Part shown: piece by piece, positions 3,100-64,000 of the stretch
Position numbering within the stretch: the stretch's first letter is position 1
Layout of the letters: each line of letters starts with the position of its first letter
NCBI GenBank assembly: GCA_038326985.1
Contig: JBBQKQ010000001.1
Span: forward strand, 5,943 to 69,942
Reading direction: 5' to 3'
DNA length: 64,000 bases
Source: Minisyncoccia bacterium
GTDB lineage: Bacteria; Patescibacteriota; Minisyncoccia; Phycocordibacterales; UBA5272
Notes under the pieces: model-generated
The model's input: only the letters and a program-made list of their open reading frames with translations
Databases searched by the model: none
Told to the model about the DNA's origin: nothing
Translations under genes and position numbers: made by a program

Positions 3100-3735
3100 G
3101 TGAGTGCATTATATCATAAAGACAATTATTATGCTAGAATGAAAATCATGATTCATGCCATACACCACCTTGGCTATATAGGAATATTTATAACCATATT
3201 TTTAGAAATTGGACTTATGATTTTCCCACTTCCTGGGGACACTTTACTTTTTACAACAGGTATAATGTCTAACTTAAAAAACGGAGTAGAGATTTTCAAC
3301 TACCCACTACTTATTCTTACGAGTTTCTTTGCTTCAGTAGTAGGAGGTCATTTTGGATATTTTATAGGTACAAAAATCAATCGCGAACAGCTAGTAAATA
3401 ATAAATATTTTAAAATTAATGACGCTCACCTTTTGCGTACAGAAAAATTCTTTGAAACATATGGTGCAGTAGCAATAATATTTTCACGGTTTGTGCCGAT
3501 AGTTAGAAACTTTATTTCGCAAATTTTAGGAATATTAAACTACGACAAAAAAAAGTTTGCCATTTATAACACAATCGCTAGTATAATATGGCCATTTATG
3601 ATTATTACAATTGGTAAGGTTTTTGGTGCCATGTTTCCCAACTTAATAAACTACGCAGAATACGCAATAGCCATAGTTTTAGTTGTACTTTGTTACCCAG
3701 TAATTAAAGAAGTAGTTAAACAAAGAAAGTCTTAA
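3100..3735 (+). CDS. DedA family membrane protein
   Basis: 211 aa, multi-TM. DedA motifs LPGDTLLFTTG and FSRFVPIVRNF. The true start may be an internal Met near 3139. Confidence 0.8.
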   Translation: MSALYHKDNYYARMKIMIHAIHHLGYIGIFITIFLEIGLMIFPLPGDTLLFTTGIMSNLKNGVEIFNYPLLILTSFFASVVGGHFGYFIGTKINREQLVNNKYFKINDAHLLRTEKFFETYGAVAIIFSRFVPIVRNFISQILGILNYDKKKFAIYNTIASIIWPFMIITIGKVFGAMFPNLINYAEYAIAIVLVVLCYPVIKEVVKQRKS

Positions 3736-4504
3736 ATTCTTCAGGTAGCTCAGATTCAATTTTCATTTCCAAGCTAGTTTTTAGGTGTAAAAGTTTTAGA
3801 CTTTTTGCGTGCAACATTAACCTATTTTCCGCATCTTCTTTACCAACATTATCAATTCCGCCATATCCATATTTTTTATCTCCTAAAATCGGTATTCCTA
3901 AAAACTTTGCATGTAAACGTATTTGGTGAGTTCTACCAGTCTTAGGCCAAAATTTTACTTGCACTAAGTTCCTCCCCTTCATTAAGGGGAGGTTAGGTGG
4001 GGTTTGCACTTCATACCTAGTTTCTGCATCTCTTACACTTTTTCTACTCCCTTCTTCACTTTGTAAAACCCAAATTCTGGGATCTTTTTTGTGCCTACTC
4101 AAAGGCTCTCGCACTACTCCCCTCTCCTTCGGAGAGGGGTCGGGGGTGAGGCCAGCAGTTTTTGCATAACATATTGCCAAGTATTCTTTTTCAATACTTC
4201 TTTCACTAAACTGCTTTTGTAAACTCTCAAACACTTCTAAATTTTTTGCAATCAAAATTATGCCACTTGTTTCCCTATCGAGCCTGTTAACTATTCCCCA
4301 TCTATTCTCATATCTTCCACTATCTAAAGTATGTGGATTGCCCACACTTTCAAGATCTGGAAAATTAATTTTTATCCAATCTGTCAAACTTTTTTCATCA
4401 GTACGACCATCATTATGCACTACCAAACCACTTGGCTTGTCGATAGCTAGAAAAAAATCGTCTTCAAATATTATTTTTATGGCCAATTGCTCGACGTCTT
4501 TCAT
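3716..4504 (-). CDS. RluA-family pseudouridine synthase (no S4 domain)
   Basis: 262 aa. Motifs HRLDRETSGIILIAK and GRTHQIRLH. Carries two GC-rich in-frame elements (see repeats at 3971 and 4119). Confidence 0.9.
   Translation of the reverse strand: MKDVEQLAIKIIFEDDFFLAIDKPSGLVVHNDGRTDEKSLTDWIKINFPDLESVGNPHTLDSGRYENRWGIVNRLDRETSGIILIAKNLEVFESLQKQFSERSIEKEYLAICYAKTAGLTPDPSPKERGVVREPLSRHKKDPRIWVLQSEEGSRKSVRDAETRYEVQTPPNLPLMKGRNLVQVKFWPKTGRTHQIRLHAKFLGIPILGDKKYGYGGIDNVGKEDAENRLMLHAKSLKLLHLKTSLEMKIESELPEEFKTFFV
3971..4003 (-). repeat. GC-rich hairpin mini-element, family B, copy 1 (in frame inside the RluA gene)
   Basis: cctcccctt-catt-aaggggagg (9-bp perfect stem) followed by ttaggtggggt. Translated in the host frame as TPPNLPLMKGRN. 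A related copy lies at 37322-37355. Confidence 0.8.
4119..4152 (-). repeat. GC-rich hairpin mini-element, family A, copy 1 (in frame inside the RluA gene)
   Basis: cccctctcc-ttc-ggagagggg (9-bp perfect stem) followed by tcgggggtgaggc. Translated as GLTPDPSPKERGV. A related copy lies at 58964-58996. Confidence 0.8.
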
Positions 4505-4546: not shown

Positions 4547-5014
4547 ATGAAAATTCAAACTACAGAGGAAAATAAAATAAGAAGAAATTTTTTAATTAGT
4601 GTTTTTATTAAAGGAGCAATTTCTTTTGCAGAAATTGTAGCAGGATTAATTTTATTTTTTATTCCAATATCTTTTATTATCAACCCACTATTATCTTTTA
4701 GTTTTGTCTCACACTATTTACAAGGAATTATTAATGAACTTACTGCGGCAAGTGGAACATTTATTGCAATTTATTTATTATCACGAGGACTTATTAAGTT
4801 TTTATTAATAATTGCCCTTTTGAAAGATAAGCTTTGGGCATACCCAAGTTCATTAGCAGTGTTAGGATTATTTGTTTTGTATCAAATATATCAAATAATA
4901 ACAACTCATTCAATAGCTATAGTTTTAATAACCATTTTTGATTTGTTTGTTATGTGGAGTATTTGGAGAGAATATATTTTACTAAAAGATAAAAAAGTTT
5001 TTACCAGTTTGTAA
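4547..5014 (+). CDS. small multi-TM membrane protein (DUF2127-like)
   Basis: 155 aa, 4 predicted TM helices. The N-terminal pattern RRNFLISVFIKGAISFAEIVAGL resembles DUF2127 from memory. Unverified. Confidence 0.5.
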   Translation: MKIQTTEENKIRRNFLISVFIKGAISFAEIVAGLILFFIPISFIINPLLSFSFVSHYLQGIINELTAASGTFIAIYLLSRGLIKFLLIIALLKDKLWAYPSSLAVLGLFVLYQIYQIITTHSIAIVLITIFDLFVMWSIWREYILLKDKKVFTSL

Positions 5015-6725
5015 GACGAGCTAAGCCGAGAGCATATTCGAGCCACCAAGTTCCCGCAGAAGGACCTCCATTACAATTACCATCACTTTCACCAGGTGCT
5101 TTAATCCATAAATATGCATCTATTAATGAATCGCCAGTATTGGCAGATGGTTTATTCCCTAAAGATCTTCCACTTGGGTTACACCATTCACCATTTGAGC
5201 CATTCCCATTTCTAGAACTGTCAATTATGAAATGTTTATTTCCCACTCTAGCAGAAATATCTTTTCCATAAACTGTATTTTCATCAGAAGATTGGAAATT
5301 TGATACATTCAAACTAAACCCATCAGCACTTGCTATCCCCGCTTTTTGTAGTCTATCAGACATATCTACTGGTGCTATCCAATTTGCATGACCAGCATCC
5401 AAATAAACATATGCGTTACTTTGTTTTAAAGTTTTTACTGCATAATTTAGCATTGAAAATCTATCATTTTTCATGCTATCCGATAGACAATCTAGTTGAG
5501 AAAGTGAATCTGGCTCAAGAACAACTATTACTCCATTTACATTATCATTTTTAATATTTTGAGCAACCATATTTATCCAGGTTTTGTAAGAATCTACATT
5601 ATTAGATCCCCCACTTGAATAACTTCCACAATCGCGTGACGGAATATTATAAACAACAAATATTGGCATAGCTAAATCCGCCTTTGAGGCTTTCATTACT
5701 TTTTGAATATCTAAGGGTGTACTCCAACCGCCTAGCCAAGTCGCTACTGAGTTGGACGATATTTTTTTCATCAAATTTATGTCAGTAGTATTTGTCATCT
5801 GTGACACTGCTTTTGCAGCACTACTGCTAGGGTTCACATAAAACTTTTTACCAGAAAATATTCCAGAAGTATTAGAAGTATTATTTAATGTTGTTATAAT
5901 TGTAGGCTGAACAATATTTTTTACATAAATTGTCTTATCAATTTTTCCTACCGTATTTCCATTAAGATCTTTTGCTATAAAAGTGAGAATATATGGACCA
6001 TAAGGATTGGTACTTGTACCTCCTCTCCACTTCCAGCCAGACATATCTACTAGCGATTCTTTATGAGGGTAGTCTGTGGCATTGTCAAACATTTCCGAAA
6101 GATTACCATTATCTACCTGCCAGAACATTTTATATTCCGTAACATTTTTTCCATCCACAACTGCTTTAAAAGGTGAAGTCACGTCTAAAATTGCATTATT
6201 TGCAGGCCACCACACATTAATATTTAAATTTAACGGAGTAACGATGGCTGAAACAATAATTGGTTGCGCAACAATAACTGGTTGCGAAACTGCTATTGGT
6301 ATTGGTGTAGATGTAGGCGTATCTACATATATATTTACAGATTTTTCTGAGATGAAATCCCCATTATTATTTTTAGATTTAAAAGTTAGTTTGTAAGAAT
6401 TTGCCCCCTTCCAATTCCAACCCGAAAGGTCTACTGTGGATTCTTTATGAGGATAACCTTCGTATGAAGTTGGCATTACATTTAAAGTGCCCCCATCCAC
6501 TTGCCAAAACATTTGATAATCGTTTATTAAAGTATTTTGTAACATCCCTTTAAAAGGAATATTAGTTGAAGTGTTATTAAAATGAGCACCCTCAAACGGC
6601 CACCAGACTTCTGTGATAGGTACATCTGCTGCATATACAAAACTAAAAGTGTTAATCAACAATACACCTAAAATACTAAATGAAAATTTTACCCACTTAT
6701 TTATTCTGTTGCTAAATTTTGACAT
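5001..6725 (-). CDS. secreted glycoside hydrolase family 6 (cellulase) with two N-terminal copies of an uncharacterised beta-rich domain
   Basis: 574 aa with a signal peptide. Both GH6 signatures are present: FVVYNIPSRDCGSYSSGG and VIVVLEPDSLS. Also DAGHANW and WIKAPGESDG. Residues about 37-135 and 167-269 are tandem repeats (VWWP...Y(Q/K)MFWQVD.G.L...YPHKES.VD.SGW.W). Confidence 0.88.
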   Translation of the reverse strand: MSKFSNRINKWVKFSFSILGVLLINTFSFVYAADVPITEVWWPFEGAHFNNTSTNIPFKGMLQNTLINDYQMFWQVDGGTLNVMPTSYEGYPHKESTVDLSGWNWKGANSYKLTFKSKNNNGDFISEKSVNIYVDTPTSTPIPIAVSQPVIVAQPIIVSAIVTPLNLNINVWWPANNAILDVTSPFKAVVDGKNVTEYKMFWQVDNGNLSEMFDNATDYPHKESLVDMSGWKWRGGTSTNPYGPYILTFIAKDLNGNTVGKIDKTIYVKNIVQPTIITTLNNTSNTSGIFSGKKFYVNPSSSAAKAVSQMTNTTDINLMKKISSNSVATWLGGWSTPLDIQKVMKASKADLAMPIFVVYNIPSRDCGSYSSGGSNNVDSYKTWINMVAQNIKNDNVNGVIVVLEPDSLSQLDCLSDSMKNDRFSMLNYAVKTLKQSNAYVYLDAGHANWIAPVDMSDRLQKAGIASADGFSLNVSNFQSSDENTVYGKDISARVGNKHFIIDSSRNGNGSNGEWCNPSGRSLGNKPSANTGDSLIDAYLWIKAPGESDGNCNGGPSAGTWWLEYALGLARLTNW

Positions 6726-8501: not shown

Positions 8502-11495
8502 TTAATTATTTATTAATTTATACTCTTTTAGAAGCATTCCTTCTGAGAAGGATTTTGTTTGCACTAGTTGATAATGTTCATCAAAATAATTCTCAATTTT
8601 AGATTGATACCCCTGGTCATAACTTAGGAGGAGCCACAAATGGCTGTGGCCAGATACAATTTTTCCAGCCTCCGTTGGCAATGTTTTTTCGTCAAACGGA
8701 GGAATGGGCCCTGCGACACTCCTGTCCCACAGGGGTAAAGTAGTTATGAGCGTATTTCCATGGTAGTAATAAAGAAACGGAAAAATTATAAATGGTGCAG
8801 ATAAAGTTATTACATCTTCTTCACTTGCATAACGCTCTATATATGCTGTAGCTTCTTTATAGTTTTCTTTAACTGGTGTTTGTGCATTATTAATTTCCAA
8901 TGAAAGCGTAAACAACATTACAGCAACTAATCCAAATCTTGCAAATCTTGCAACTACCGGCCTATAAGTAGAAAACATCCAGGATACTAAAATATAAAGT
9001 GATGGTGCAGTGAATATAAGATATCTACTTAAAAATACTGGTTTGTAAAAAATACTTATTGCAAATGATATTGCAACTGGTACAATAAAACTCAAGAGGA
9101 AATAAAATGTTTCAGGTGAACTTTTTTGTCTTTTTTGTAAGAACATAAAAACTAACAATACTATGATTGGCCAAAAAGAAACTAGAATGGTATTGGTATC
9201 AGGCGTTTGAAAACCAAATAAAAACTGTGAAAAAGTGTTAAAAAGGTCAACTGTCGTAGGCTGTATAAGTCCAGGTTGAGAGTTACTTGCACTTCCCAGG
9301 GACTTCACATAATAAATCCAAGGTAGAAACCCTAATGCAACTAACCCGCCAGAAATTATAAATTTTTTAAATGATCCCTCAGGAAATATTTTAGTGTTTA
9401 AAAAATAAAATATAACTTGTGTGATTATGAATAAGGAAAAAAAGTAATGTACATACATACCGATAATAGAAATTAACGTATACCCTATCCAGACTTTTTT
9501 ACTAGGATTTTTCCAAAGTGAAACAAATAGATATTGACTCAAAAGAACCAAAAAAACAAACATGGTGTACATTCGAATTTCACTTCCATACCAGTTCATA
9601 AAAGCCGAGGCCGCAAGTAATATTGATGCGTATATACCAACATTACTATTATAAGCGCGCTTACCAACAAAATAAATTAAAACTATTGAAGCTAGAAAAA
9701 AAATGAGTGAGAGGAGTCTTGCAACTTCGATACTATCACCTAGAAAATAGCGCCAAATGTATAAAGTAAAGTGGTAAAGTGGTACGTGCACATCTTGACC
9801 TATAAGGTTTAATATTTTGGCAGGTGAATGTGAAGTTTGCCAAAGACTTTGTGATTCATCCAGTCTTAAACTTTGTAAACTAAAAACAATTTTTGAAAGT
9901 AATGCTGCGAATATTAGCAATCCTGATATGATTACATTACTTTGAAAACTAGAAATAGTTTTAACTTTAGTTATCACTTTTTGAAGTTCTGTTTTTTTGG
10001 TTTGTGGCAATGCTGCATAAATAAAAGGTACGAATATTCCTATATTTAGAAGTGCCCATGCAGTATTAGTAAAAAATGAAGCTGTAAAACCTTCTCTAAA
10101 ATATGAATATCCTACTCCAACTATTACTAATACTATATAAGAAATTTGGGGTATTACTAGCTTTATAAAGTTACCTTCAACAGCTTTTTTAGAAGTAACT
10201 TCGAACTTTGATTTCTTATTTGTTAGTGCTGCCCATAAAGCCTTTATATGTATGTTAAAACCAGAGTTTGAAAAACATAGTGAAGAAAAGGTAAACGAAT
10301 AGTTTGTTGACTGCTCAAGCAATAATAAGGTTAGAAAGATATATGGTAAGAATACTGAAGCAAGAAGCATTGTTGAGGAAACTATGGGTACGGCACCAGT
10401 GAAAAAATAAATCAGTGGAATACAAGCATCTATTACAACTACTATGCCTGATAAAAAGAAACACACAGAAGACATATATTGTAAGCGTTGTTTAAACGTA
10501 AGTCCATGTGTTTTATTTTTTCTTGAAAAAATGCCCCGAAAAATAATATTATGTTTGAAAATAACGTCCAGTGCTCCCCGGGCCCATCTAAATTGTTGAT
10601 TAAAATAAGACAGGAAGTCTTCAGGTGCTAAACCTTCCGCTAAAACCTCTGGTACGTAAACCGATTTATATTTTCTTTCATGTAAAAGTATTCCTGTTAA
10701 TAAATCTTCGGCAATTGATGCTTCCCACATGCCCCCGACTTCGCTCAGTGCGAGCCTCGATAAAACCATATTTGTACCACACATAGTAGCACTGTTGTCA
10801 CGATTTTTACCTTTACAAATTGGACCAAAGAAAAGCTCTTGTTGTTCCCAAGCACTTTCAGTAATAATGTTTACATCAGAGTTTTTATAAAATTGAGGTG
10901 TTTGAACATATGCTACTTTTTCGTCTGCGAAATAAAGCATTGTTTTCTTTAAAAAGTCAGTATGAGGAACATGATCAGCATCAAAAATAGTAATATATGG
11001 TGCACTTGTTTTACTGATTGCATGATTTATATTACCTGCTTTTGCACCTCCGGGAATTGTACGAGTAATACTAGTAACGCCATGTTTTAAAGCAAGCTCG
11101 TCAATTTCTTGCCAATTATCTTTGGATGCAACTAACCCATCATTTAAAATAAATATTTTAAAATTTGGATAGTCCATTTTTTTTGCAGCTATTATTGTTT
11201 CTTCAACTATTTGGACTGGCTCCCCACATACTGTTATAAAGACATCTACAGGTTGAGAAAAATTTGGGTCTTTAATTTCTGGCATGTATTCCGTATTCCA
11301 AATAGTGTAAAGAAAGGTCATAAATTGAAAAACATGAAAAACTTCTCCAAATATTAATAAGTAAAATACTATAGAATTACTTACAACAAATGTAAAAGCA
11401 ATGATATAAAAATATATTAACGTAAGAAGTACAGCAGAAAGAATGAGGATTTTATTTACTTTAGTTTGTAAAAACTTTTCACGAGGGTTTTGCAT
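8502..11495 (-). CDS. fusion protein: processive GT2 beta-glycan (cellulose-synthase-like) synthase plus C-terminal GT-C (ArnT/PMT-like, COG1807-type) domain
   Basis: 997 aa. N-terminal half has BcsA/CesA-type motifs: DVFITVCGEP, ILNDG, ITIFDADHVP, VQTPQFY, AEDLLTG, QQFRWARG (QxxRW). No PilZ domain was seen. From about residue 545: LRLDESQSLW...VPLYHFTLYIWRYFLGDSIEVARLLSLIFF, a multi-TM region typical of GT-C enzymes that use lipid-linked sugars. Confidence 0.8.
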   Translation of the reverse strand: MQNPREKFLQTKVNKILILSAVLLTLIYFYIIAFTFVVSNSIVFYLLIFGEVFHVFQFMTFLYTIWNTEYMPEIKDPNFSQPVDVFITVCGEPVQIVEETIIAAKKMDYPNFKIFILNDGLVASKDNWQEIDELALKHGVTSITRTIPGGAKAGNINHAISKTSAPYITIFDADHVPHTDFLKKTMLYFADEKVAYVQTPQFYKNSDVNIITESAWEQQELFFGPICKGKNRDNSATMCGTNMVLSRLALSEVGGMWEASIAEDLLTGILLHERKYKSVYVPEVLAEGLAPEDFLSYFNQQFRWARGALDVIFKHNIIFRGIFSRKNKTHGLTFKQRLQYMSSVCFFLSGIVVVIDACIPLIYFFTGAVPIVSSTMLLASVFLPYIFLTLLLLEQSTNYSFTFSSLCFSNSGFNIHIKALWAALTNKKSKFEVTSKKAVEGNFIKLVIPQISYIVLVIVGVGYSYFREGFTASFFTNTAWALLNIGIFVPFIYAALPQTKKTELQKVITKVKTISSFQSNVIISGLLIFAALLSKIVFSLQSLRLDESQSLWQTSHSPAKILNLIGQDVHVPLYHFTLYIWRYFLGDSIEVARLLSLIFFLASIVLIYFVGKRAYNSNVGIYASILLAASAFMNWYGSEIRMYTMFVFLVLLSQYLFVSLWKNPSKKVWIGYTLISIIGMYVHYFFSLFIITQVIFYFLNTKIFPEGSFKKFIISGGLVALGFLPWIYYVKSLGSASNSQPGLIQPTTVDLFNTFSQFLFGFQTPDTNTILVSFWPIIVLLVFMFLQKRQKSSPETFYFLLSFIVPVAISFAISIFYKPVFLSRYLIFTAPSLYILVSWMFSTYRPVVARFARFGLVAVMLFTLSLEINNAQTPVKENYKEATAYIERYASEEDVITLSAPFIIFPFLYYYHGNTLITTLPLWDRSVAGPIPPFDEKTLPTEAGKIVSGHSHLWLLLSYDQGYQSKIENYFDEHYQLVQTKSFSEGMLLKEYKLINN

Positions 11496-11503
11496 AAAAT
11501 TTT

Positions 11504-12736
11504 TTACTTATTATATGGAATATAATTTTTTGCTAAATTTGGTAGTTGGCCATTATATAAAGAAATAGCAAACCAAGTCCAATTGTCATCATAATAACTT
11601 AGTTGGGTTTTCCAGTCGTTTATATCAATGTCATAAAGGTAAACTATTTTTTTGTCGTAAATTTCTTTAGCTGATGCTTTGTCCATTATCCAAAAATACC
11701 CAAATGAACCCGCATACATTGCTGGTGATTCTTTTTCGGAAACTATTCCACCGTTATGTAAATATACACTTGCTAATTTCTTTCTAGACTTCCATTCATT
11801 TCCTAAAAATCCCAATCTACTTAGATAGTTTTTTGCCCTTGGGTCACCAAACCACTCATAATCAAGCGCAATTCTAAATGGAACCCGCAATGCATCATAA
11901 GAATAATTTGTTGTATTAGTTGTATTTAAATCATTACTATTTGGTACAATCTCTCCAGAAGATTTACTAATAGTTAGCCAATCAGGTGGAAGAGATGCTG
12001 AAGATTCTTTATCAAGCTTATCCTCAGTTGATCGCAGTAAAAGCCCATAGGAGCTATCAACCAAATCATTCCAGTTGTGAGTAGGGTCAACTTTAGCAAA
12101 TATTTTGTAAGCGTAAGGAGAAAAATAAGAAACATTTATTACATAATTTTCTTTGGCTAAATATTCTATGTCGTCTGCCGCAAGATATGGAACATTTTTA
12201 ATTTGAACAACATCATATTTCCACATGTCATTTAATATATTTTTTGCTTGTTCTAAATACCTTGGGTCTCCCCATCTTTCACTTGCAAATATAAGCGCAA
12301 GTGCAATATCACTATCAGCATCACTTGCAGTATTTTGGCCACCTCTTTCTGTTATTATTCCATAAGTACCATCAATTTTTTTTCCATAAAGCCACGAGAA
12401 AAGATTGTCATTTTCCCTTTTTAAATTCTGATTTGCCCATGTAAGAGTTTTTTCAAAAGTTACCTTATCATCTGAATATACTGCACGCAAAAGTGAATAA
12501 CTTATACCCTCTGAAGTTGTAATATCTCCAGATTGTCTATCAAGTGTTCTTCCACTCTCAACTTCTATGTAGTTCTTTTTATAATTATTCCAAATAAAAG
12601 AAAGCGCATCTTTGGGTGCAAATAGTCTCGTTTGATCAGGATATTTACTATTTAAAAACAATGCATAAACCGCTACTAAGAATGCTAAGGTGATGAATAT
12701 CACTCCAAGATTTTCTCTAGAAATATCTTTTATCAT
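11504..12736 (-). CDS. glycoside hydrolase family 8 (BcsZ-like endoglucanase), membrane-anchored
   Basis: 410 aa. Perfect GH8 signature ASDADSDIALALIFASERW. TSEGISYSLL catalytic-Glu region. N-terminal TM helix. Confidence 0.9.
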   Translation of the reverse strand: MIKDISRENLGVIFITLAFLVAVYALFLNSKYPDQTRLFAPKDALSFIWNNYKKNYIEVESGRTLDRQSGDITTSEGISYSLLRAVYSDDKVTFEKTLTWANQNLKRENDNLFSWLYGKKIDGTYGIITERGGQNTASDADSDIALALIFASERWGDPRYLEQAKNILNDMWKYDVVQIKNVPYLAADDIEYLAKENYVINVSYFSPYAYKIFAKVDPTHNWNDLVDSSYGLLLRSTEDKLDKESSASLPPDWLTISKSSGEIVPNSNDLNTTNTTNYSYDALRVPFRIALDYEWFGDPRAKNYLSRLGFLGNEWKSRKKLASVYLHNGGIVSEKESPAMYAGSFGYFWIMDKASAKEIYDKKIVYLYDIDINDWKTQLSYYDDNWTWFAISLYNGQLPNLAKNYIPYNK

Positions 12737-24695: not shown

Positions 24696-25526
24696 CTATA
24701 AAGCAAAAGCAAAATCTTTTGGAAAAGGTGACTCTATTTTTATAGTTTCGCCAGTTTCCGGATCTTGAAAAGCAATACTTTTTGCATGCAAAAGTTGATG
24801 AACTTTGTTTTTCCCAAATACTTCTTGTTCAAGTTTTTCATTTTTTGGTCCATACAAATGGTCCCCTACTATAGGGTGACCGATAGATTTTGTGTGAATT
24901 CTTATTTGGTGCATACGTCCACTTTCTGGTAAAAACGCTACTAAAGTTAGACGCACTCCAGCAAACACAAAACGCTTCACTACTCTATATCGTGTGAGCG
25001 ATGCCCTCTCTTCTCCACGAAATTTCTCTTCCCCTTCTATGGTAATTTTTACCACTTCTTTACGCCGAAAATCCGACCGTGAGCGAGCTATTGCATAGTC
25101 AATTATCCCAGTTTCGTTTCTCATATTACCAAACACAACCGCATAGTACTCTTTTTTAATTTTGTGTTCTGAAAACTGGATCTTTAAATTTTCGTAAGCA
25201 TCCTCTATTTTTGCTAACAGCAATACCCCGGAAGTATCTTTATCTAGCCTATGGACTATTCCTGGTTTTTTAATTTCTACTTCTTTACCGTTAACATTTA
25301 CAAAAGCATTTTCACCCACTTTAGCTAATTTTTTAAAATTTTTCAAAACAAAATCTGCAACTGTAAATTCCTCTCTTTTACCATCTTTGTGTACTGACAC
25401 TCCAGAGGGCTTATCAAGAGCAATAACATTTTTGTTCTCAAATAGAGTTTTAATTTTAATCTCTTTAATTTTTTTAAGAGTTATTTTTTTTACCTCTGTT
25501 TTTTTTGTAGTTTTTAGTTCTTTCAT
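24696..25526 (-). CDS. RluA-family pseudouridine synthase (second paralogue)
   Basis: 276 aa. HRLDKDTSGVLLLAK and GRMHQIRIH. Lacks the GC-rich elements seen in 3716..4504. Confidence 0.9.
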   Translation of the reverse strand: MKELKTTKKTEVKKITLKKIKEIKIKTLFENKNVIALDKPSGVSVHKDGKREEFTVADFVLKNFKKLAKVGENAFVNVNGKEVEIKKPGIVHRLDKDTSGVLLLAKIEDAYENLKIQFSEHKIKKEYYAVVFGNMRNETGIIDYAIARSRSDFRRKEVVKITIEGEEKFRGEERASLTRYRVVKRFVFAGVRLTLVAFLPESGRMHQIRIHTKSIGHPIVGDHLYGPKNEKLEQEVFGKNKVHQLLHAKSIAFQDPETGETIKIESPFPKDFAFAL

Positions 25527-29239: not shown

Positions 29240-30484
29240 TTACCGATGAGAGTTAATATACCCTCTTGTAGACAAACCAAACATTCCTGTTCCAGATTGG
29301 AGACCTAAAGGAGTTAAAATCTCACCTCTATGAGCTTCTTGAAAAGATTTAAGAGCTGCTTTAGTTTTTGGACCAAAAAGACTTGTTTCAGTTCCTTTAG
29401 AACCTAGTCCACTTGAGGAAACAGTGTAGCCATGGTTATTAAGATATTGTTGGAGTCGAAGCACGTCAGCACCACTACTTCCAAGAGTGAGAGAGACATC
29501 GAATGCTTGAGCAACATTAATTTGAGCTTGGATTGTTTGTGTATTTTGAACAGAAGAAGTAACTATTGTTGGTGATTGTGTAGAAGTATTGATACCACTA
29601 GCGCTTCCAGAAGTAGTATAGGTTGTTTGATTTTGTGTAGGAGTTTGTATGGTTGTTTGTGATGGAGTTTGCGCTGGAGCCGGTGTTACTATTTGTGTAG
29701 GGGTTGGATTTAATATTACAGATGGTTGAGTAAAATTTCCAGTACTCATAACTGCATTTGCATCCAATGTTACAGCAGTCTGTGCTAAAGCTCTACCATT
29801 AAGCGTTGCGCCTGTTTGTAAATTAATTGCAGTTTGAGTTAACAGGTTGCCATTAAACTGTGCCGTTGTTCCAATGTTTGCATTGCTTCCAACTTGCCAA
29901 AATATATTTTTTGCTTGTGCACCTCCAGTAAGAATTACTTTCTTGCCACTCGCTACATTTAATCCTTGAGCTATTTGAAAAATCCAAACATCATTTGGAC
30001 CACCTGAAAGGGTAACATCCGAATTTATTGCAACGCCTGTACCCCATTTATACAGTCCAGGAGCAATCGTTAGCCCACTAATATCTCCTGCCCCAAGTTC
30101 AGTTGCAGTTGGCAAGGTTCTACCTGCAGCATCAGTGTACGCAGTTTGCATATCCCCTACTGCAGAAGTAAGATTAGAAGAAGTAGGATCTGCATAGTTC
30201 GCTGCGTAAATTTTTCCAGTAACAACAGGAGAAGTAGAAAATACATTTGTAGCATCAGCCGAAAGTCCAAATCCAGTTATGTAGGTTGCAGCAACTGGAC
30301 TCACTCCAATGTCACCTGTAATCTGCGTCACTCCTGTGGTTGAGATTCCTGTTTTTGACAAGATTACAAAGTTTCCTGCAGTTCCAAGATTTACTGCTGC
30401 TGGTCCCGCAGCAAATGCGTTGGCCCCGCTCATTGCAACAACGAGAACCAATAATAGATAAGACAATTTATTTTTATTTTTCAT
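29240..30484 (-). CDS. secreted DUF3494 (ice-binding-like beta-solenoid) protein with a C-terminal peptidoglycan-binding (PG_binding_1) domain
   Basis: 414 aa with a signal peptide. VNLGTAGNFVILSKTGISTTGVTQITGDIGVSP is typical of DUF3494. T/Q/P-rich linker. C-terminus: GADVLRLQQYLNNHGY...GPKTKAALKSFQ. Confidence 0.8.
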   Translation of the reverse strand: MKNKNKLSYLLLVLVVAMSGANAFAAGPAAVNLGTAGNFVILSKTGISTTGVTQITGDIGVSPVAATYITGFGLSADATNVFSTSPVVTGKIYAANYADPTSSNLTSAVGDMQTAYTDAAGRTLPTATELGAGDISGLTIAPGLYKWGTGVAINSDVTLSGGPNDVWIFQIAQGLNVASGKKVILTGGAQAKNIFWQVGSNANIGTTAQFNGNLLTQTAINLQTGATLNGRALAQTAVTLDANAVMSTGNFTQPSVILNPTPTQIVTPAPAQTPSQTTIQTPTQNQTTYTTSGSASGINTSTQSPTIVTSSVQNTQTIQAQINVAQAFDVSLTLGSSGADVLRLQQYLNNHGYTVSSSGLGSKGTETSLFGPKTKAALKSFQEAHRGEILTPLGLQSGTGMFGLSTRGYINSHR

Positions 30485-36269: not shown

Positions 36270-38060
36270 TTATATTAAAATTCTATATAACCTCAAGTCA
36301 TCATAAGAGTGTTTCTCTTTTAATTCCTTAAAAACCGGGTTTAACTTACCTGACAGCTCTTCGTCGTTTGCAAACTTTTCAAAGGCTTTTTTAACTGCGA
36401 CTGGTATTTTTTGATATTTTTTAGGAATTAATTCTTTCACTTCATCTTTCCCGATTTTTTCCCATTCTAAAAGCTCTTCAACATGTCCGAGAATTGTAGC
36501 AATCGTCAAACCACGTTTTTTAGCAATGTCCTCGAGCTTTACTTTTTCTAAAAGGTAATTTAAAGTTTGGTCTTGAGTAGATAATTTACTTTCTTGAACC
36601 TTTGGCATTACTCCCCCTTCAGGACTACCACCACACCTGACAATAAAATCATGTTTTAGTTTCTCCATTCTTCCGGCTTCCGAATTTCTTAATTTCTCTT
36701 GGATAAATTTTGAGTCTTTCAAAATCTTTTCGTCAAACTCACTTATGGCTTCATTTACTAGCAAACTTTTTGCATTAAAACTTTTTAAATGGAGCCCATC
36801 CAAACTTCGTACTCGCGAAAGTGCCACATACCCCTGTCCGTATTCAAAAGTCTCCCCCAAAGAAACTACTGCCGAGTCAAGTGACATACCTTGTGACTTA
36901 TGGACGGTTATTGCCCACGCAAGACGGAGTGGATACTGACTTATTTTTGCTTTTACTTTTCCATCATCCTCAATTGCCCAATCTGCTTGTTTTAAGTTTA
37001 CTGTTTGTCCATTGGTTTTCCTGATTGTAATTCCAAAACTTGAAAGGTCTACGACTTCGCCCATTGTTCCATTTACAAATTGTCCTTCCATATCATTTTT
37101 AGTAAAAATAACTTTAGCTCCAACTTTAAGTTTTAAAATTTCAGGTGACAAACAATTTTTTATTAAACCCTCTACTAGTTTTGCACTTCCAGTACTTATC
37201 ATTTTATATATTTTTTCTGTACCAACCAAATTTTTTAATTTATTTTCATTGATACTATCTACGTCTTTATTATGCGAATGTAGCTCAATAATATCGACCA
37301 AATCAATACCTTGTGGAACTTCCCCACCCTTATTTAAGGGAAGGTTAGGGGGGGTCTCTTCTAGCACTTCAATACTTTCTTCCTCAAATTCTTCTTTTAT
37401 TATCTTCTCTTTTATACCTAGTTTTTTATTTGTCCTCTTTACTAGTTCTTCTAAAATTTCCACATGCATTTCTTCAATGTTATTCGCTCGTATTGCTAAA
37501 AGCAAATTTGTAAATATCTCGTCACTTTGGCGAAACTGTTCTTCTAAGTAGCAAGTTAAAGGCCGAGCTTCTTTCCAAGCTGAGCTTGCAAAGGCAAAAT
37601 GTTTTCCTTGTTCACCAAATTTTGTAACTGGTGGTAGTTGAAAAAAGTCCCCGACAAATATTACTTGAAGCCCCCCAAAAGCTTTTTCTGGATTTTTAAT
37701 AGCTTTACAAACTTTGTTCACATTCTCTAAAGTTTGCGCATCAAGCATCGATATCTCATCTATTATAAGTACAGTGGCATTTTGTATTTTTTTTACAAGC
37801 TTTTCTCGACTCATTATTTCGTCTAGTTTATAGTCATCTATATAATTTGAAATTCCAATCCCACTCCATGAGTGGATTGTACTTCCAGAGATATGTGTGG
37901 CAGCTATCCCAGTTGAAGCCGTGATGCTTGGATATATTCCATGCTCTACCAAATATTTTACGTATTGGTTTATCACGTAGGTCTTTCCAGCCCCTGGAAC
38001 TCCAGTTAAAAAGACATTGCTCCCGGTTTTTAAAATTTCTAAGGCCTCTGTTTGTAGCAT
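36270..38060 (-). CDS. Pif1/RecD-family (SF1B) DNA helicase with a C-terminal HTH-like domain
   Basis: 596 aa. Walker A GVPGAGKTYV, LIIDEISML, GDFFQLPPV, VHKSQGMSLD. Carries GC-rich element B2 in frame. Confidence 0.9.
   Translation of the reverse strand: MLQTEALEILKTGSNVFLTGVPGAGKTYVINQYVKYLVEHGIYPSITASTGIAATHISGSTIHSWSGIGISNYIDDYKLDEIMSREKLVKKIQNATVLIIDEISMLDAQTLENVNKVCKAIKNPEKAFGGLQVIFVGDFFQLPPVTKFGEQGKHFAFASSAWKEARPLTCYLEEQFRQSDEIFTNLLLAIRANNIEEMHVEILEELVKRTNKKLGIKEKIIKEEFEEESIEVLEETPPNLPLNKGGEVPQGIDLVDIIELHSHNKDVDSINENKLKNLVGTEKIYKMISTGSAKLVEGLIKNCLSPEILKLKVGAKVIFTKNDMEGQFVNGTMGEVVDLSSFGITIRKTNGQTVNLKQADWAIEDDGKVKAKISQYPLRLAWAITVHKSQGMSLDSAVVSLGETFEYGQGYVALSRVRSLDGLHLKSFNAKSLLVNEAISEFDEKILKDSKFIQEKLRNSEAGRMEKLKHDFIVRCGGSPEGGVMPKVQESKLSTQDQTLNYLLEKVKLEDIAKKRGLTIATILGHVEELLEWEKIGKDEVKELIPKKYQKIPVAVKKAFEKFANDEELSGKLNPVFKELKEKHSYDDLRLYRILI
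37322..37355 (-). repeat. GC-rich hairpin mini-element, family B, copy 2 (in frame inside the helicase gene)
   Basis: ccccacccttatttaagggaaggttagggggggt. Translated in the host frame as ETPPNLPLNKGGE, compared with TPPNLPLMKGRN at 3971-4003. Same orientation and frame relative to the host gene. Confidence 0.75.
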
Positions 38061-38123: not shown

Positions 38124-38747
38124 TTACAAATAAATATTCTTAAAATCCAAATTCAAGAAAAACTTTTTTACTTTTTCAAAATCAACCTCAAATCCTTTCA
38201 TCATAAAAATCTCATCATCTTCTATTTCATCAAAATATTTTAAACTTTTTAAAATTAAAGACGCATTTAAGCTAGGATATTTTATATTACACTGATCGAG
38301 TAGATATTGTAAATTAAAATCTCGAAGTAAGAAATATAAATCAACATAATCTTTTTTAGTCGATCTTTGGCAAATTGCACTTAATTTCATGCAAGCAATA
38401 TCTAGTTTGCTCGCTAATTTTAAATATTTTTCATTTTTAAAAATTTCCAACATTTCATATTTGATTGTAAAAAAACTGACCTTAACACCATTGTCCAACA
38501 AAAACACAAGTGTATTTTTTGCTTCTCTAGTTATTTCTAATTTATAATTTTTGAAAACTTCTCGGCATTTTTCAAAAAGAATGGCTACATCAAAATCTTG
38601 ATCTGTAAAAAAGTCAAAGTCGATACTTTCTCTATGTCCTAAGTAAAGTGCCAATGCGGTACCACCAGCCAAATAAAAATCATTTTTAAAATTCTCCATT
38701 AGTGGCAACACTTCCATTCTCGCTTTATCTAAAACTTCGTATTTCAT
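38124..38747 (-). CDS. nucleotidyltransferase, AbiEii/AbiGii toxin-like (type IV TA family)
   Basis: 207 aa. FYLAGGTALALYLGHRESIDFDFF is the characteristic NTase motif of this family. Confidence 0.7.
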   Translation of the reverse strand: MKYEVLDKARMEVLPLMENFKNDFYLAGGTALALYLGHRESIDFDFFTDQDFDVAILFEKCREVFKNYKLEITREAKNTLVFLLDNGVKVSFFTIKYEMLEIFKNEKYLKLASKLDIACMKLSAICQRSTKKDYVDLYFLLRDFNLQYLLDQCNIKYPSLNASLILKSLKYFDEIEDDEIFMMKGFEVDFEKVKKFFLNLDFKNIYL

Positions 38748-58854: not shown

Positions 58855-59358
58855 CTAGTGGAAAAAACCTAAGATTATCTCATCCACTAAAGAAATTTTC
58901 TGATCTTTATTTTCCTTCAAATTGCTTCCTATTGCATTTTTAATCATATCTATATTGGCACTTCCTCCCTCTCTATCGGAGAGGGTCGGGGTGAGGCTTT
59001 CCTCGCCACTTAGGTCAATATAGGCATCTTGGTAAAGTGGGCTTTTAAAAGTAAGCCTCAAAAATGGCTTTGGCAATTCAAAAACTTGATTAATAATTGA
59101 ATAACTCAAAAGGTCACTATATTTATAACTAGTATTTCCATAAAGTATTCCATCATCAAATATATAAACTTCAATATTTTCTTCCCTATCTTTACTTAAA
59201 AAGATTAAAAAAGTTATCATACAAACGATTACAAAAAATAAAATATTCCCAAACATGAAAGCAAAAAATAACACAAAGGCAAGAAAAACTCCCAAGTAAA
59301 CTTTACCAGGAACGTGTATATCCTTTTTATATATAGTAAATGAATAAATAGGACTCAT
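58855..59358 (-). CDS. hypothetical 2-TM membrane protein
   Basis: 167 aa. Carries GC-rich element A2 in frame. Confidence 0.3.
   Translation of the reverse strand: MSPIYSFTIYKKDIHVPGKVYLGVFLAFVLFFAFMFGNILFFVIVCMITFLIFLSKDREENIEVYIFDDGILYGNTSYKYSDLLSYSIINQVFELPKPFLRLTFKSPLYQDAYIDLSGEESLTPTLSDREGGSANIDMIKNAIGSNLKENKDQKISLVDEIILGFFH
58964..58996 (-). repeat. GC-rich hairpin mini-element, family A, copy 2 (in frame)
   Basis: cctccctctctatcggagagggtcggggtgagg. Translated as SLTPTLSDREGG, compared with GLTPDPSPKERG at 4119-4152. Confidence 0.75.
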
Positions 59359-63078: not shown

Positions 63079-64000
63079 TTATGGAGTTGCTGGAACCGGT
63101 GTAGGGTCTGGAGTTGGAGCCGGGCTTGGTGTGGAAGTAGGATCTGTTGAAGTTCCTGAACTAGGATTAGCTGGTGCTGAAGTATTGGCATTACCACCTC
63201 CAGAGTTATTAGAACCAGATGATATTATCTTGTCTAAGTCTTCTTTTGTATAACATTTCTCTACTCCGTCAGTTCCTGTTAGACAAAGTTGTTTTGTCTT
63301 AACTTTTTCTACACCGACATTTGCTAACAAATATTTAACTTCAGTTATTATTCTCTCAATTACTAGCCCTAAGAATGTTGAAGTTGTAGTAGAAGTTGTA
63401 GCTGTAAGAAGTGTTCCAGAAGCGTTATAAGTAGCAGGAGTTACGACAGTTGAAGAAGTTGCAGAAGTACTTGAGGAAAGTTCCGCCAAGAAGTCATTAA
63501 CTTGTTTTGCATTAGTACCAAGAGCTTTTAATTTAGCATCCACAGAAATTGTTGAACTTGCAGTTAAGTCTTCGATAGTTACTGCTGTAACTGTTGCAGA
63601 ACTAAATATTCTACTGTTCAACTCTTGAAGGGCTCGAATTGCAGGAACAACTAGTGATGCATAATCTACACCAAGAGTGTCTTTCACAGTCGTTGTACTT
63701 CCATCAGCATTTGCATAAGTTGTTGCTCCTATTATTGTTACTGAGTCTGGGAAGAGAGCTTGAACATTTTGGGCAAGAAGTCCAGTGTGTGTTCCAACTT
63801 TATTTATATCTTTCCAAGAGAAGTTTACAGTGTTTAGGTTTAAGATATTTTCAAGCGCTGACTTTCCATCTAAAGTTCCTAGATTATTTTTTAATCTTTC
63901 ATCTGAAGTACAATTTGTTGCACCAGTTCCTGCACCGATTATACAAGTAGTTCCAGAGCCTGCTACTGTTAGATTTCCATTGGCTGCTACTGTCAAGACG
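63079..64000 (-). CDS. C-terminal part of a fibre-like protein with a peptidase S74 (intramolecular chaperone/endosialidase-type) domain and an S/T/P-rich tail. The N-terminus lies outside the window.
   Basis: CTSDERLKNNLGTLDGKSALENILNLNTVNFSWKD...GLLAQNVQALFPDSV...LGVDYASLVVPAIRALQELNSRI matches the S74 pattern (SDxRLKxNI ... Y.wk ... G.iAQev ... v.Y..l....i.A.QeL). The frame is open to position 64000. Confidence 0.75.
   Translation of the reverse strand, partial: VLTVAANGNLTVAGSGTTCIIGAGTGATNCTSDERLKNNLGTLDGKSALENILNLNTVNFSWKDINKVGTHTGLLAQNVQALFPDSVTIIGATTYANADGSTTTVKDTLGVDYASLVVPAIRALQELNSRIFSSATVTAVTIEDLTASSTISVDAKLKALGTNAKQVNDFLAELSSSTSATSSTVVTPATYNASGTLLTATTSTTTSTFLGLVIERIITEVKYLLANVGVEKVKTKQLCLTGTDGVEKCYTKEDLDKIISSGSNNSGGGNANTSAPANPSSGTSTDPTSTPSPAPTPDPTPVPATP

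Follow-up and report, generated by a model that had tools for sequence, protein, structure and literature searches.

How do short G+C-rich blocks come to lie in frame inside ordinary protein-coding genes of an A+T-rich genome, and what kind of element are they? The question is raised by a 64-kb stretch (the window; 32.8% G+C) of the source genome, a Paceibacteria-like metagenome-assembled genome (MAG) contig from the Patescibacteria, or candidate phyla radiation (CPR). An earlier note on this DNA had described four G+C-rich blocks of 33-34 nt (3971-4004, 4119-4151, 37322-37355 and 58964-58996), and both their coordinates and their sequences proved to be as given there. The blocks sit in frame in three minus-strand genes, which encode an RluA-type pseudouridine synthase, a Pif1 helicase and a small membrane protein. 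We consider it likely that they are class II intrastrand-triplex motifs of the BoxC/PIT/TMECO class, dispersed in CPR genes and read as short protein loops. The parts of the four blocks, called B1, A1, B2 and A2, are as follows.

3971..4004, + strand (the G-rich strand is the + strand): triplex motif B1, inside the RluA gene
3971-3979, +: B1 pyrimidine arm, CCTCCCCTT
3980-3983, +: B1 loop, CATT
3984-3992, +: B1 purine arm, AAGGGGAGG
3993-3995, +: B1 second loop, TTA
3996-4004, +: B1 third strand, GGTGGGGTT, which mirrors the purine arm exactly, T facing A
RluA residues 168-178, read on -: B1 peptide, TPPNLPLMKGR
4119..4151, +: triplex motif A1, inside the RluA gene
4119-4127, +: A1 pyrimidine arm, CCCCTCTCC
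4128-4130, +: A1 loop, TTC
4131-4139, +: A1 purine arm, GGAGAGGGG
4140-4142, +: A1 second loop, TCG
4143-4151, +: A1 third strand, GGGGTGAGG
RluA residues 119-129, read on -: A1 peptide, LTPDPSPKERG
37322..37355, +: B2, a degenerate B-type copy, CCCCACCCTT / ATTT / AAGGGAAGG / TTA / GGGGGGGT
Acidic inter-domain linker of Pif1, read on -: B2 peptide, TPPNLPLNKGG
58964..58996, +: triplex motif A2, inside the membrane-protein gene
58967-58974, +: A2 pyrimidine arm, CCCTCTC(T), with the loop after it
58978-58985, +: A2 purine arm, (G)GAGAGGG
58986-58988, +: A2 second loop, TCG
58989-58996, +: A2 third strand, GGGTGAGG
Membrane protein, read on -: A2 peptide, LTPTLSDREGG

The earlier note had quoted these four peptides correctly; what it missed is that the G-rich tail behind each hairpin is, in A and B alike, the mirror image of the hairpin's purine arm and can serve as the third strand of a triplex. 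With the tail of B1 or A1 aligned in antiparallel direction against the purine arm, a G.G:C, T.A:T or A.A:T triplet results at each position, which identifies a class II (purine-motif, reverse-Hoogsteen) intrastrand triplex motif; in A1, where the mirror of GGAGAGGGG is GGGGAGAGG and the actual third strand is GGGGTGAGG, the triplets include one T.A and one A.A. A strict triplex search of the window, following published rules (PMC4666352) and allowing at most one mismatch, found B1, A1 and A2, compared with 0.07 motifs per shuffled window. It did not find B2, because both the stem (5+2 bp, with two mismatches) and the third strand (2-3 mismatches) of that copy have decayed; the B2 core differs from the B1 core at two positions. 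The perfect 9-bp hairpins that had been ascribed to all four copies are therefore a property of the two RluA copies, A2 having 7 bp (8 bp with one mismatch). The 20-21-nt cores had 0.00 expected matches in 100 dinucleotide-preserving shuffles, and just five G+C-rich hairpins of at least 7 bp occur in the 64 kb, three of which are these elements. The mRNA hairpins are stable in three copies (-14.5 to -18.3 kcal/mol by ViennaRNA, hairpin only; B1, -16.7 kcal/mol, z = -4.1), and B2 RNA folds no better than shuffled sequences. A further hairpin, at 1488-1511, was considered as a family member and rejected, as it is intergenic, lacks a third strand and precedes a T-rich run. Its G+C stem of 10 bp is perfect (GCCCCGCGGA gatt TCCGCGGGGC) and lies in the gap downstream of the L11 gene (1769-2197, - strand); with the T-rich run after it on the - strand, the hairpin is probably an intrinsic terminator.

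Motifs with this architecture were first named BoxC in Escherichia coli, re-described as PIT elements by Hoyne and Maher, and then called TMECO (PMC4666352). The TMECO consensus is CCCTCNCCC-N3-6-GGGNGAGGG-N3-GGGNGAGGG (Holder 2015, PMC4666352); it comes in two types, with TTA or CCG as the second loop, and occurs 3610 times in 262 proteobacterial genomes, with related G/C-rich motifs abundant in cyanobacteria, and the strand on its own folds into a stable triplex in vitro (PMC4666352). The blocks in the window share with this class the order of pyrimidine arm, 3-6-nt loop, purine arm, ~3-nt loop and mirror G-rich third strand, a length of ~33-37 nt, a near-identical core, two variants distinguished by the second loop (TTA versus YCG), many dispersed copies and the lack of a known associated transposase. 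A and B, which had been taken for two families, are thus two variants of one described class, with second loops TCG and TTA, respectively. A2 contains an 18-mer, GAGAGGGTCGGGGTGAGG, identical to copies 12 and 20 of the E. coli K-12 TMECO (Table 1, PMC4666352), and the A copies agree with the consensus at ~8/9 positions per block; the B copies have a different arm (AAGGGGAGG) and represent a variant of the class, not TMECO proper. This link to E. coli is based on the sequences printed in that paper, a blastn search of E. coli genomes with a 45-mer of A1 being too insensitive. A stem of ~8-9 bp or more with a 3-6-nt loop is found in B1 (9 bp, 4 nt) and A1 (9 bp, 3 nt), A2 having its 7 bp; a mirror third strand behind a loop of ~3 nt is found in B1, A1 and A2, and B2 fails in this respect; and the motif is over-represented, with four copies in 64 kb and 18 in the clade sample described below. 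The stems here are 9 nt long with a slightly shifted register, and the host is a CPR bacterium of 33% G+C, not a proteobacterium or cyanobacterium. The main difference is one of location, which is no part of the structural definition: all 23 TMECO copies of E. coli K-12 are intergenic (PMC4666352), whereas the copies described here, 4/4 in the window and 19/22 in the clade, are in open reading frames (ORFs). Rfam holds no matching family.

Matches to the motif extend well beyond this clade. At least 120 IMG/VR stretches, with G+C contents of 37-74%, match the A pattern GGAGAGGG(N)TCGGGG(N)TGAGG, and nearly all of them have the complementary arm upstream; a B-type pattern occurs in at least 120 viral-contig stretches of 27-70% G+C. 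Viral contigs of 37-46% G+C also contain the exact B1 subfamily together with its flanks. Judged by these matches, the triplex-motif class is pan-bacterial and not lineage-specific. One 43.5-kb contig (L023; IMGVR_UViG_3300020057_000061) carries at least 17 A-type copies, with intergenic tandem arrays of ~72-nt units at 1740-2860, between phage structural genes. A CRISPR-like reading of such viral copies spaced at 72 nt was rejected, as the tandem units have no unique spacers and lie between phage genes. In a non-CPR metagenome contig of 57% G+C (L189, 1925-1969), an RluA homologue contains a triplex motif, CCTCTCCGCCC ... GGGGGGAGAGG ... GGTGAGGTGGG, in the loop that corresponds to the second RluA site of the window and with the G-rich strand as sense, indicating that genic copies are not confined to CPR bacteria.

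The three genes that carry the blocks are the following.

3716..4504, - strand: RluA/RluD-type pseudouridine synthase, 262 aa, carries A1 and B1 (PF00849, E = 2.2e-25)
36270..38060, -: Pif1-family helicase, 596 aa, with a C-terminal HTH_40, carries B2 (PF05970, E = 7.8e-37)
58855..59358, -: predicted membrane protein, 167 aa, carries A2 (no Pfam match)

In an AlphaFold model of the RluA protein (mean predicted local distance difference test score, pLDDT, of 90), the inserts at residues 119-129 and 168-178 form coil between strands 105-113 and 128-131 and between strands 162-167 and 180-187, respectively, and coincide with the sole internal segments of low pLDDT (below 50 at 117-123; 73 for the block 171-180). 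Together with the placement of B2 in the acidic linker between Pif1 domains, this bears out the proposal that the elements occupy surface loops or linkers.

If the blocks were inserted into these genes, relatives should include genes without them, and they do. The nearest relatives compared were the glacier-fed-stream MAGs GFS_6112 and GFS_12623. RluA orthologues with 67-70% identity (P0002, P0003) have neither A1 nor B1 and show ordinary DNA at both sites, and the membrane-protein orthologues (71-72% identity) do not have A2; the RluA paralogue at 24696-25526 likewise has ordinary A+T-rich loops at both sites, as had been noted. The Pif1 orthologue (82% identity) carries another variant in the same acidic linker, TCCCCTT-cca-AAGGGGA-tt-TGGGGGA, read as SPKSPLEGD; this linker is hypervariable, and peptides of the triplex-motif type occupy it in many other orthologues. 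The nearest orthologues thus have no element at 3/4 sites, in agreement with the earlier view of dispersed G+C-rich palindromic mini-elements in unrelated genes and not of ancestral peptide motifs. From these alignments, the copies at the three sites look like lineage-specific gains, with loss in the orthologue lineage possible for the first RluA site. Other lineages have copies elsewhere in the same proteins: RluA of locus L001 has them at loop 1 and at a third, C-terminal loop, RluA of L002 at loop 2, and the ArgRS orthologues of L220 (one), L125 (two) and L223 (one) at three different positions. Different lineages have gained different copies in the same permissive loops. The loop-1 copy in RluA of P0017, a relative of 27% G+C, is an A+T-shifted remnant that reads SPNLSLFKERN.

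These comparisons also bear on whether the blocks could be an artefact of assembly or a chimera. The contig does come from a MAG, and G+C-rich 33-mers in A+T-rich genes look foreign; but the blocks are in frame and of 3n length, host sequence on both flanks aligns to orthologues, and comparable inserts occur in assemblies made independently (NCBI, JGI, ENA and Logan). We regard the probability of an artefact as negligible.

How often such copies occur, and where, was assessed in a clade sample consisting of the window and 14 loci of the same clade (219,581 bases in total) and in 80 unrelated bacterial loci (724,263 bases). The latter came from a metagenome scan with generic RluA patterns derived from the orthologue alignment, which returned homologues of only ~30% identity and hence served as a non-CPR control; a scan of genome contigs with the RluA protein as query yielded 15 loci, of which three belong to the clade. 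When stems of 8 nt or more were required in both samples, the strict search found 18 motifs in the clade and one in the control, and the density in the clade is approximately one repeat per 12-20 kb. Genic copies make up 19 of 22 in the clade and lie in genes for RluA, ArgRS, Pif1 and a glycosyltransferase, among others. This share agrees with a coding density of 88% (p = 0.74), indicating that coding DNA is not avoided and that most copies are genic because the genome is ~88% coding.

All 18 unambiguous genic copies have a stop-free frame in register with their host; the product of (open frames/3) over these copies is 2.4e-4, and B-type copies have just one or two open frames per strand. This pattern favours read-through over excision or bypass. 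The frame also stays open in the two A copies, which were said to differ by an indel, yet indels within the element shift the frame, such that the hairpins of the two copies are read in different registers. One DNA subfamily can be read differently in different genes: B1 gives QTPPNLPLMKGRN, and the copy in the glycosyltransferase gene of L225 gives QPHLTSPINRGG. Selection therefore appears to act on the open frame and not on a particular peptide.

These observations weigh on another explanation, that the peptides (PPLxKGG, LTPxPSPKERG) are ancestral or convergently selected for a role at the protein level and that the palindrome is incidental. Three of the six differences between B1 and B2 are synonymous, TPPNLPL.KG is kept while the hairpin decays, and similar peptides recur in orthologues, as such a role would predict. 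Their recurrence is accounted for by the palindrome itself, which encodes PPL.KGG in either orientation; moreover, the same DNA motif is intergenic in L225 and in the tandem arrays of the phage-like contig, the same subfamily yields other peptides in other frames, the peptides are missing from the nearest orthologues at 3/4 sites, and the segments are predicted to be disordered. We therefore hold a peptide-level origin to be very improbable.

The orientation of the copies is biased. The C-rich strand is the sense strand in 15 copies and the G-rich strand in three (p = 0.0075). The uniform orientation relative to the host gene that had been noted for the window is correct there (4/4) and does not extend to related genomes as a rule, given the 15:3 ratio and the intergenic copies; L225 has both orientations as well as three intergenic copies. 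GC skew is negative on the strand that carries the G-rich segments in the window, and this strand would thus not be the lagging-strand template. Triplex formation in the mRNA was dropped as a cause of the bias, because purine-motif triplexes are not formed in RNA (PMC4666352).

G+C-rich hairpins without a third strand are also found in frame in RluA genes of the clade. In loop 1 they are present in L223 (10330-10380, GGGCGGCGGAC-gga-GTCCGCCGCCC), in L348 (GGGGTGCCGC-gga-GCGGCGCCCC) and, as two hairpins, in L002 (5226-5306); at site 2, L001 has CCCCCG-gacagt-CGGGGG (753-785). In-frame G+C-rich inserts may thus, judging from these hairpins, be wider in the clade than triplex motifs alone. RluA loop 1 may be a hotspot, the sole permissive loop, or a place where a structured element is selected, the last, functional reading having a low probability.

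A general form of that functional reading holds that the structure is selected in cis, as a pause site between folding units, an mRNA-stability element or a recombination or replication signal, with the peptide as a by-product. It would account for palindromes of at least four unrelated types in RluA loop 1 (A-type, B-type, GGGCGGCGGAC/GTCCGCCGCCC, GGGGTGCCGC/GCGGCGCCCC and others), for the orientation bias, for the stable mRNA hairpins of three copies, for the triplex motif in the equivalent loop 2 of RluA in the bacterium of 57% G+C, and for the very strong conservation of sequence across phyla. But the nearest orthologues do without the element at 3/4 sites, positions within one protein vary between lineages, and B2 has lost hairpin and triplex complementarity while the Pif1 gene is intact. 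In E. coli, neither promoter or terminator activity nor a block of polymerase in vivo was seen for PIT elements (PMC4666352), and recurrence in the same loops is also predicted by random insertion with filtering at the protein level. Selection for structure in cis is, in our judgement, rather improbable.

A different origin was suggested when the blocks were first likened to Rickettsia palindromic elements (RPEs), repetitive extragenic palindromic (REP) sequences and transposable elements of the miniature inverted-repeat type (MITEs). The behaviour is indeed RPE-like: as with RPEs, the genome is reduced and A+T-rich, its palindromic repeats lie in frame within unrelated genes and are tolerated at the protein surface, and orthologues exist with and without the insert. 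Membership of any of the three groups is not supported, in view of length, tags and terminal inverted repeats. RPEs are ~100-150 bp long, add ~30-50 residues, are specific to Rickettsia and have no mirror-repeat third strand, whereas the elements here are 33-34 nt (~11 residues), possess that strand and belong to a pan-bacterial class. With REP sequences, bacterial interspersed mosaic elements (BIMEs) and REP doublets forming hairpins (REPINs) they share the form of dispersed, G+C-rich imperfect palindromes of 20-40 nt, sometimes in tandem, as in the ~72-nt arrays of the phage-like contig. REP sequences have a GTAG or CGTC tag, are defined as extragenic and are accompanied by a gene for a REP-associated tyrosine transposase (RAYT) (PMC3116915; PMC3733652); the copies here are mostly intragenic, have no RAYT among 73 of the 76 ORFs of the window and no GTAG/CGTC head, the flank consensus at the pyrimidine arm being C-T or (A)CT(T), and GTAG being seen in just two copies, A1 and that of L220, there on the other side and the other strand. 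As for MITEs, no direct repeats flank the copies, the sole inverted repeat is the hairpin, and the boundaries are blurred by divergence of the loops.

The corresponding explanation is that the blocks are REP/REPIN-, MITE- or RPE-type relatives that an IS200/IS605-like Y1 transposase (RAYT), or another transposase from elsewhere in the genome, mobilises in trans through insertion of a single-stranded hairpin. Short dispersed G+C-rich palindromes, related subfamilies at non-orthologous sites of related genomes and a conserved (A)CT/TT adjoining the pyrimidine arm are what it predicts. So is a feature of GFS_6112: its ArgRS A-type copy and A1 have 39 nt in common, including the 9-nt flank GGAGTAGTG after the copy, and its element-free RluA gene reads AGT/GGAGTAGTG exactly at the position of A1, as site-specific insertion or precise excision would leave it. 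The shared flank fits microhomology-primed copying, target preference or an excision footprint alike. However, the GTAG/CGTC head is missing, and no terminal inverted repeats beyond the hairpin and no target-site duplications were seen at the blurred boundaries; the elements are 3-4x shorter than RPEs and have a mirror third strand foreign to REP, RPE and MITE; no RAYT or IS200-like transposase, for which the earlier note had proposed to look, and no other transposase (Y1 included) or integrase was found among 73 of the 76 ORFs of the 64 kb seen (20 of those 73 having no Pfam match); and no transposase or integrase remnants lie near the E. coli copies (PMC4666352). We consider mobilisation as a conventional transposable element improbable.

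Two other groups of mini-elements invite comparison. The small dispersed repeats of heterocystous cyanobacteria are reportedly ~21-27 nt long, apparently mobile, without a known transposase and nested in other sequences; they resemble the blocks in being very small, apparently mobile and without a known transposase, and differ in belonging to other sequence families and in not being defined by a triplex architecture. The G+C clusters and 'byp' elements of yeast mitochondria are small G+C-rich palindromes that, like the blocks here, spread through a genome very rich in A+T and can insert into coding sequence. They are organellar and unrelated in sequence, and byps are said to be skipped by the ribosome, whereas the conservation of frame in our copies argues for plain read-through.

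Several points weigh against an identification of the blocks as dispersed triplex motifs that genes tolerate as loops. Folding into a triplex inside cells is hypothetical even for E. coli, footprinting with dimethyl sulfate having been negative there (PMC4666352). We infer translation of the elements as read-through loops from continuity of the reading frame alone. Boundaries of the insertions are not clean, the net gain being +7 codons in all three window cases versus a 33-34-nt motif. The counts are from 64 kb of the source genome only, and the loci from relatives were partly picked for showing such peptides, such that the densities and the 15:3 orientation ratio may be biased. Unrelated G+C-rich hairpins share the same RluA loop in other lineages, and a structured element there could itself be selected. 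Finally, near-identity across phyla extends beyond architecture to the sequence and may reflect a sequence-specific partner or function, something for which a 'neutral passenger' model does not account.

If the blocks are members of the BoxC/PIT/TMECO class, as we think likely, their history could be pictured as follows. In single-stranded DNA, the G-rich segment would fold back on the hairpin via reverse-Hoogsteen G.G:C, A.A:T and T.A:T triplets. New copies might, as a tentative suggestion, be made from existing ones in the course of replication or repair, through template switching for which short flanking homology provides the primer; alternatively, a single-strand DNA transposase acting in trans, from a gene elsewhere in the genome, could produce them. 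Within genes, copies would be translated as short Pro/Gly/charged loops that add nothing to protein function, and selection would act as a filter, keeping those with 3n length, a stop-free frame, a permissive loop and, preferably, a C-rich sense strand. With that strand as sense, the strand able to form the purine-motif triplex would be the transcribed template and not the displaced strand; the displaced strand would then be C-rich, and its triplex would need acid pH (PMC4666352). Retained copies would erode under A+T mutation pressure, of which the degenerate B2 and the A+T-shifted remnant in P0017 would be examples. A further proposal, which we think unlikely, is that BoxC/PIT/TMECO elements are actively mobile by a transposase-independent or host-enzyme route (e.g., microhomology-primed template switching at triplex-stalled forks) and thereby a recurrent source of loops. 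In a stronger version of this mobile-element reading, structured G+C-rich inserts may be positively retained at certain loops, RluA loop 1 among them, where they would serve as co-translational or co-transcriptional pause sites.

Several other features of the window and of related loci were noted. A gene for an AbiEii-type nucleotidyltransferase toxin (38124-38747, - strand) adjoins the Pif1 gene, as it does in the closest relative (L224, 935-1612). The protein encoded at 29240-30484 (-) is ice-binding-like (PF11999, E = 2.6e-77) and also has a peptidoglycan-binding domain, which fits the cold, glacier-fed-stream origin of GFS_6112 and GFS_12623. Genes for a GH6 cellulase-like protein (5001-6725, -), a 997-aa GT2-PMT_2 fusion (8502-11495, -) and a GH8 hydrolase (11504-12736, -) are clustered with a sortase gene and constitute a locus for polysaccharide synthesis and degradation that is sizeable for a CPR genome. 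An ORF at the window end (63079-63996, -) has a Peptidase_S74 domain (an intramolecular chaperone of endosialidase or tail-fibre type) and may be phage-derived. In the clade, IleRS contains an inserted histidine-phosphatase (His_Phos_1) domain (L002, 11579-15220; L222, 15192-18675; L223, 18030-20798), and the IleRS, ArgRS and L11 gene calls of L222 are split or truncated.

Our literature search found no paper on in-frame genic copies of triplex repeats or BoxC, nor on palindromic in-frame insertions in CPR/Patescibacteria; what is described here is a known class in a genomic niche that had not been reported for it. BoxC/PIT/TMECO elements have been known for ~30 years as highly conserved, widespread and, in E. 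coli, strictly intergenic, and in-frame copies in CPR housekeeping genes mean that the class is not intrinsically excluded from coding DNA. The insertion sites lie in alignable protein sequence, where, unlike for intergenic copies, gain, loss, orientation, frame and decay can be scored across lineages. There is also a practical warning, in that short Pro/Gly-rich 'motifs' in predicted proteins, such as PPLxKGG and LTPxPSPKERG, may be derived from repeats. Beside the Rickettsia RPE paradigm, the elements provide a second, much smaller and much more widespread case of selfish DNA making protein loops. Were the mobile-element reading true, the copies in conserved genes would be datable insertions, from which transposition or templated copying could be reconstructed with CPR genomes, and the elements would repeatedly supply reduced genomes with new surface loops in their proteins.

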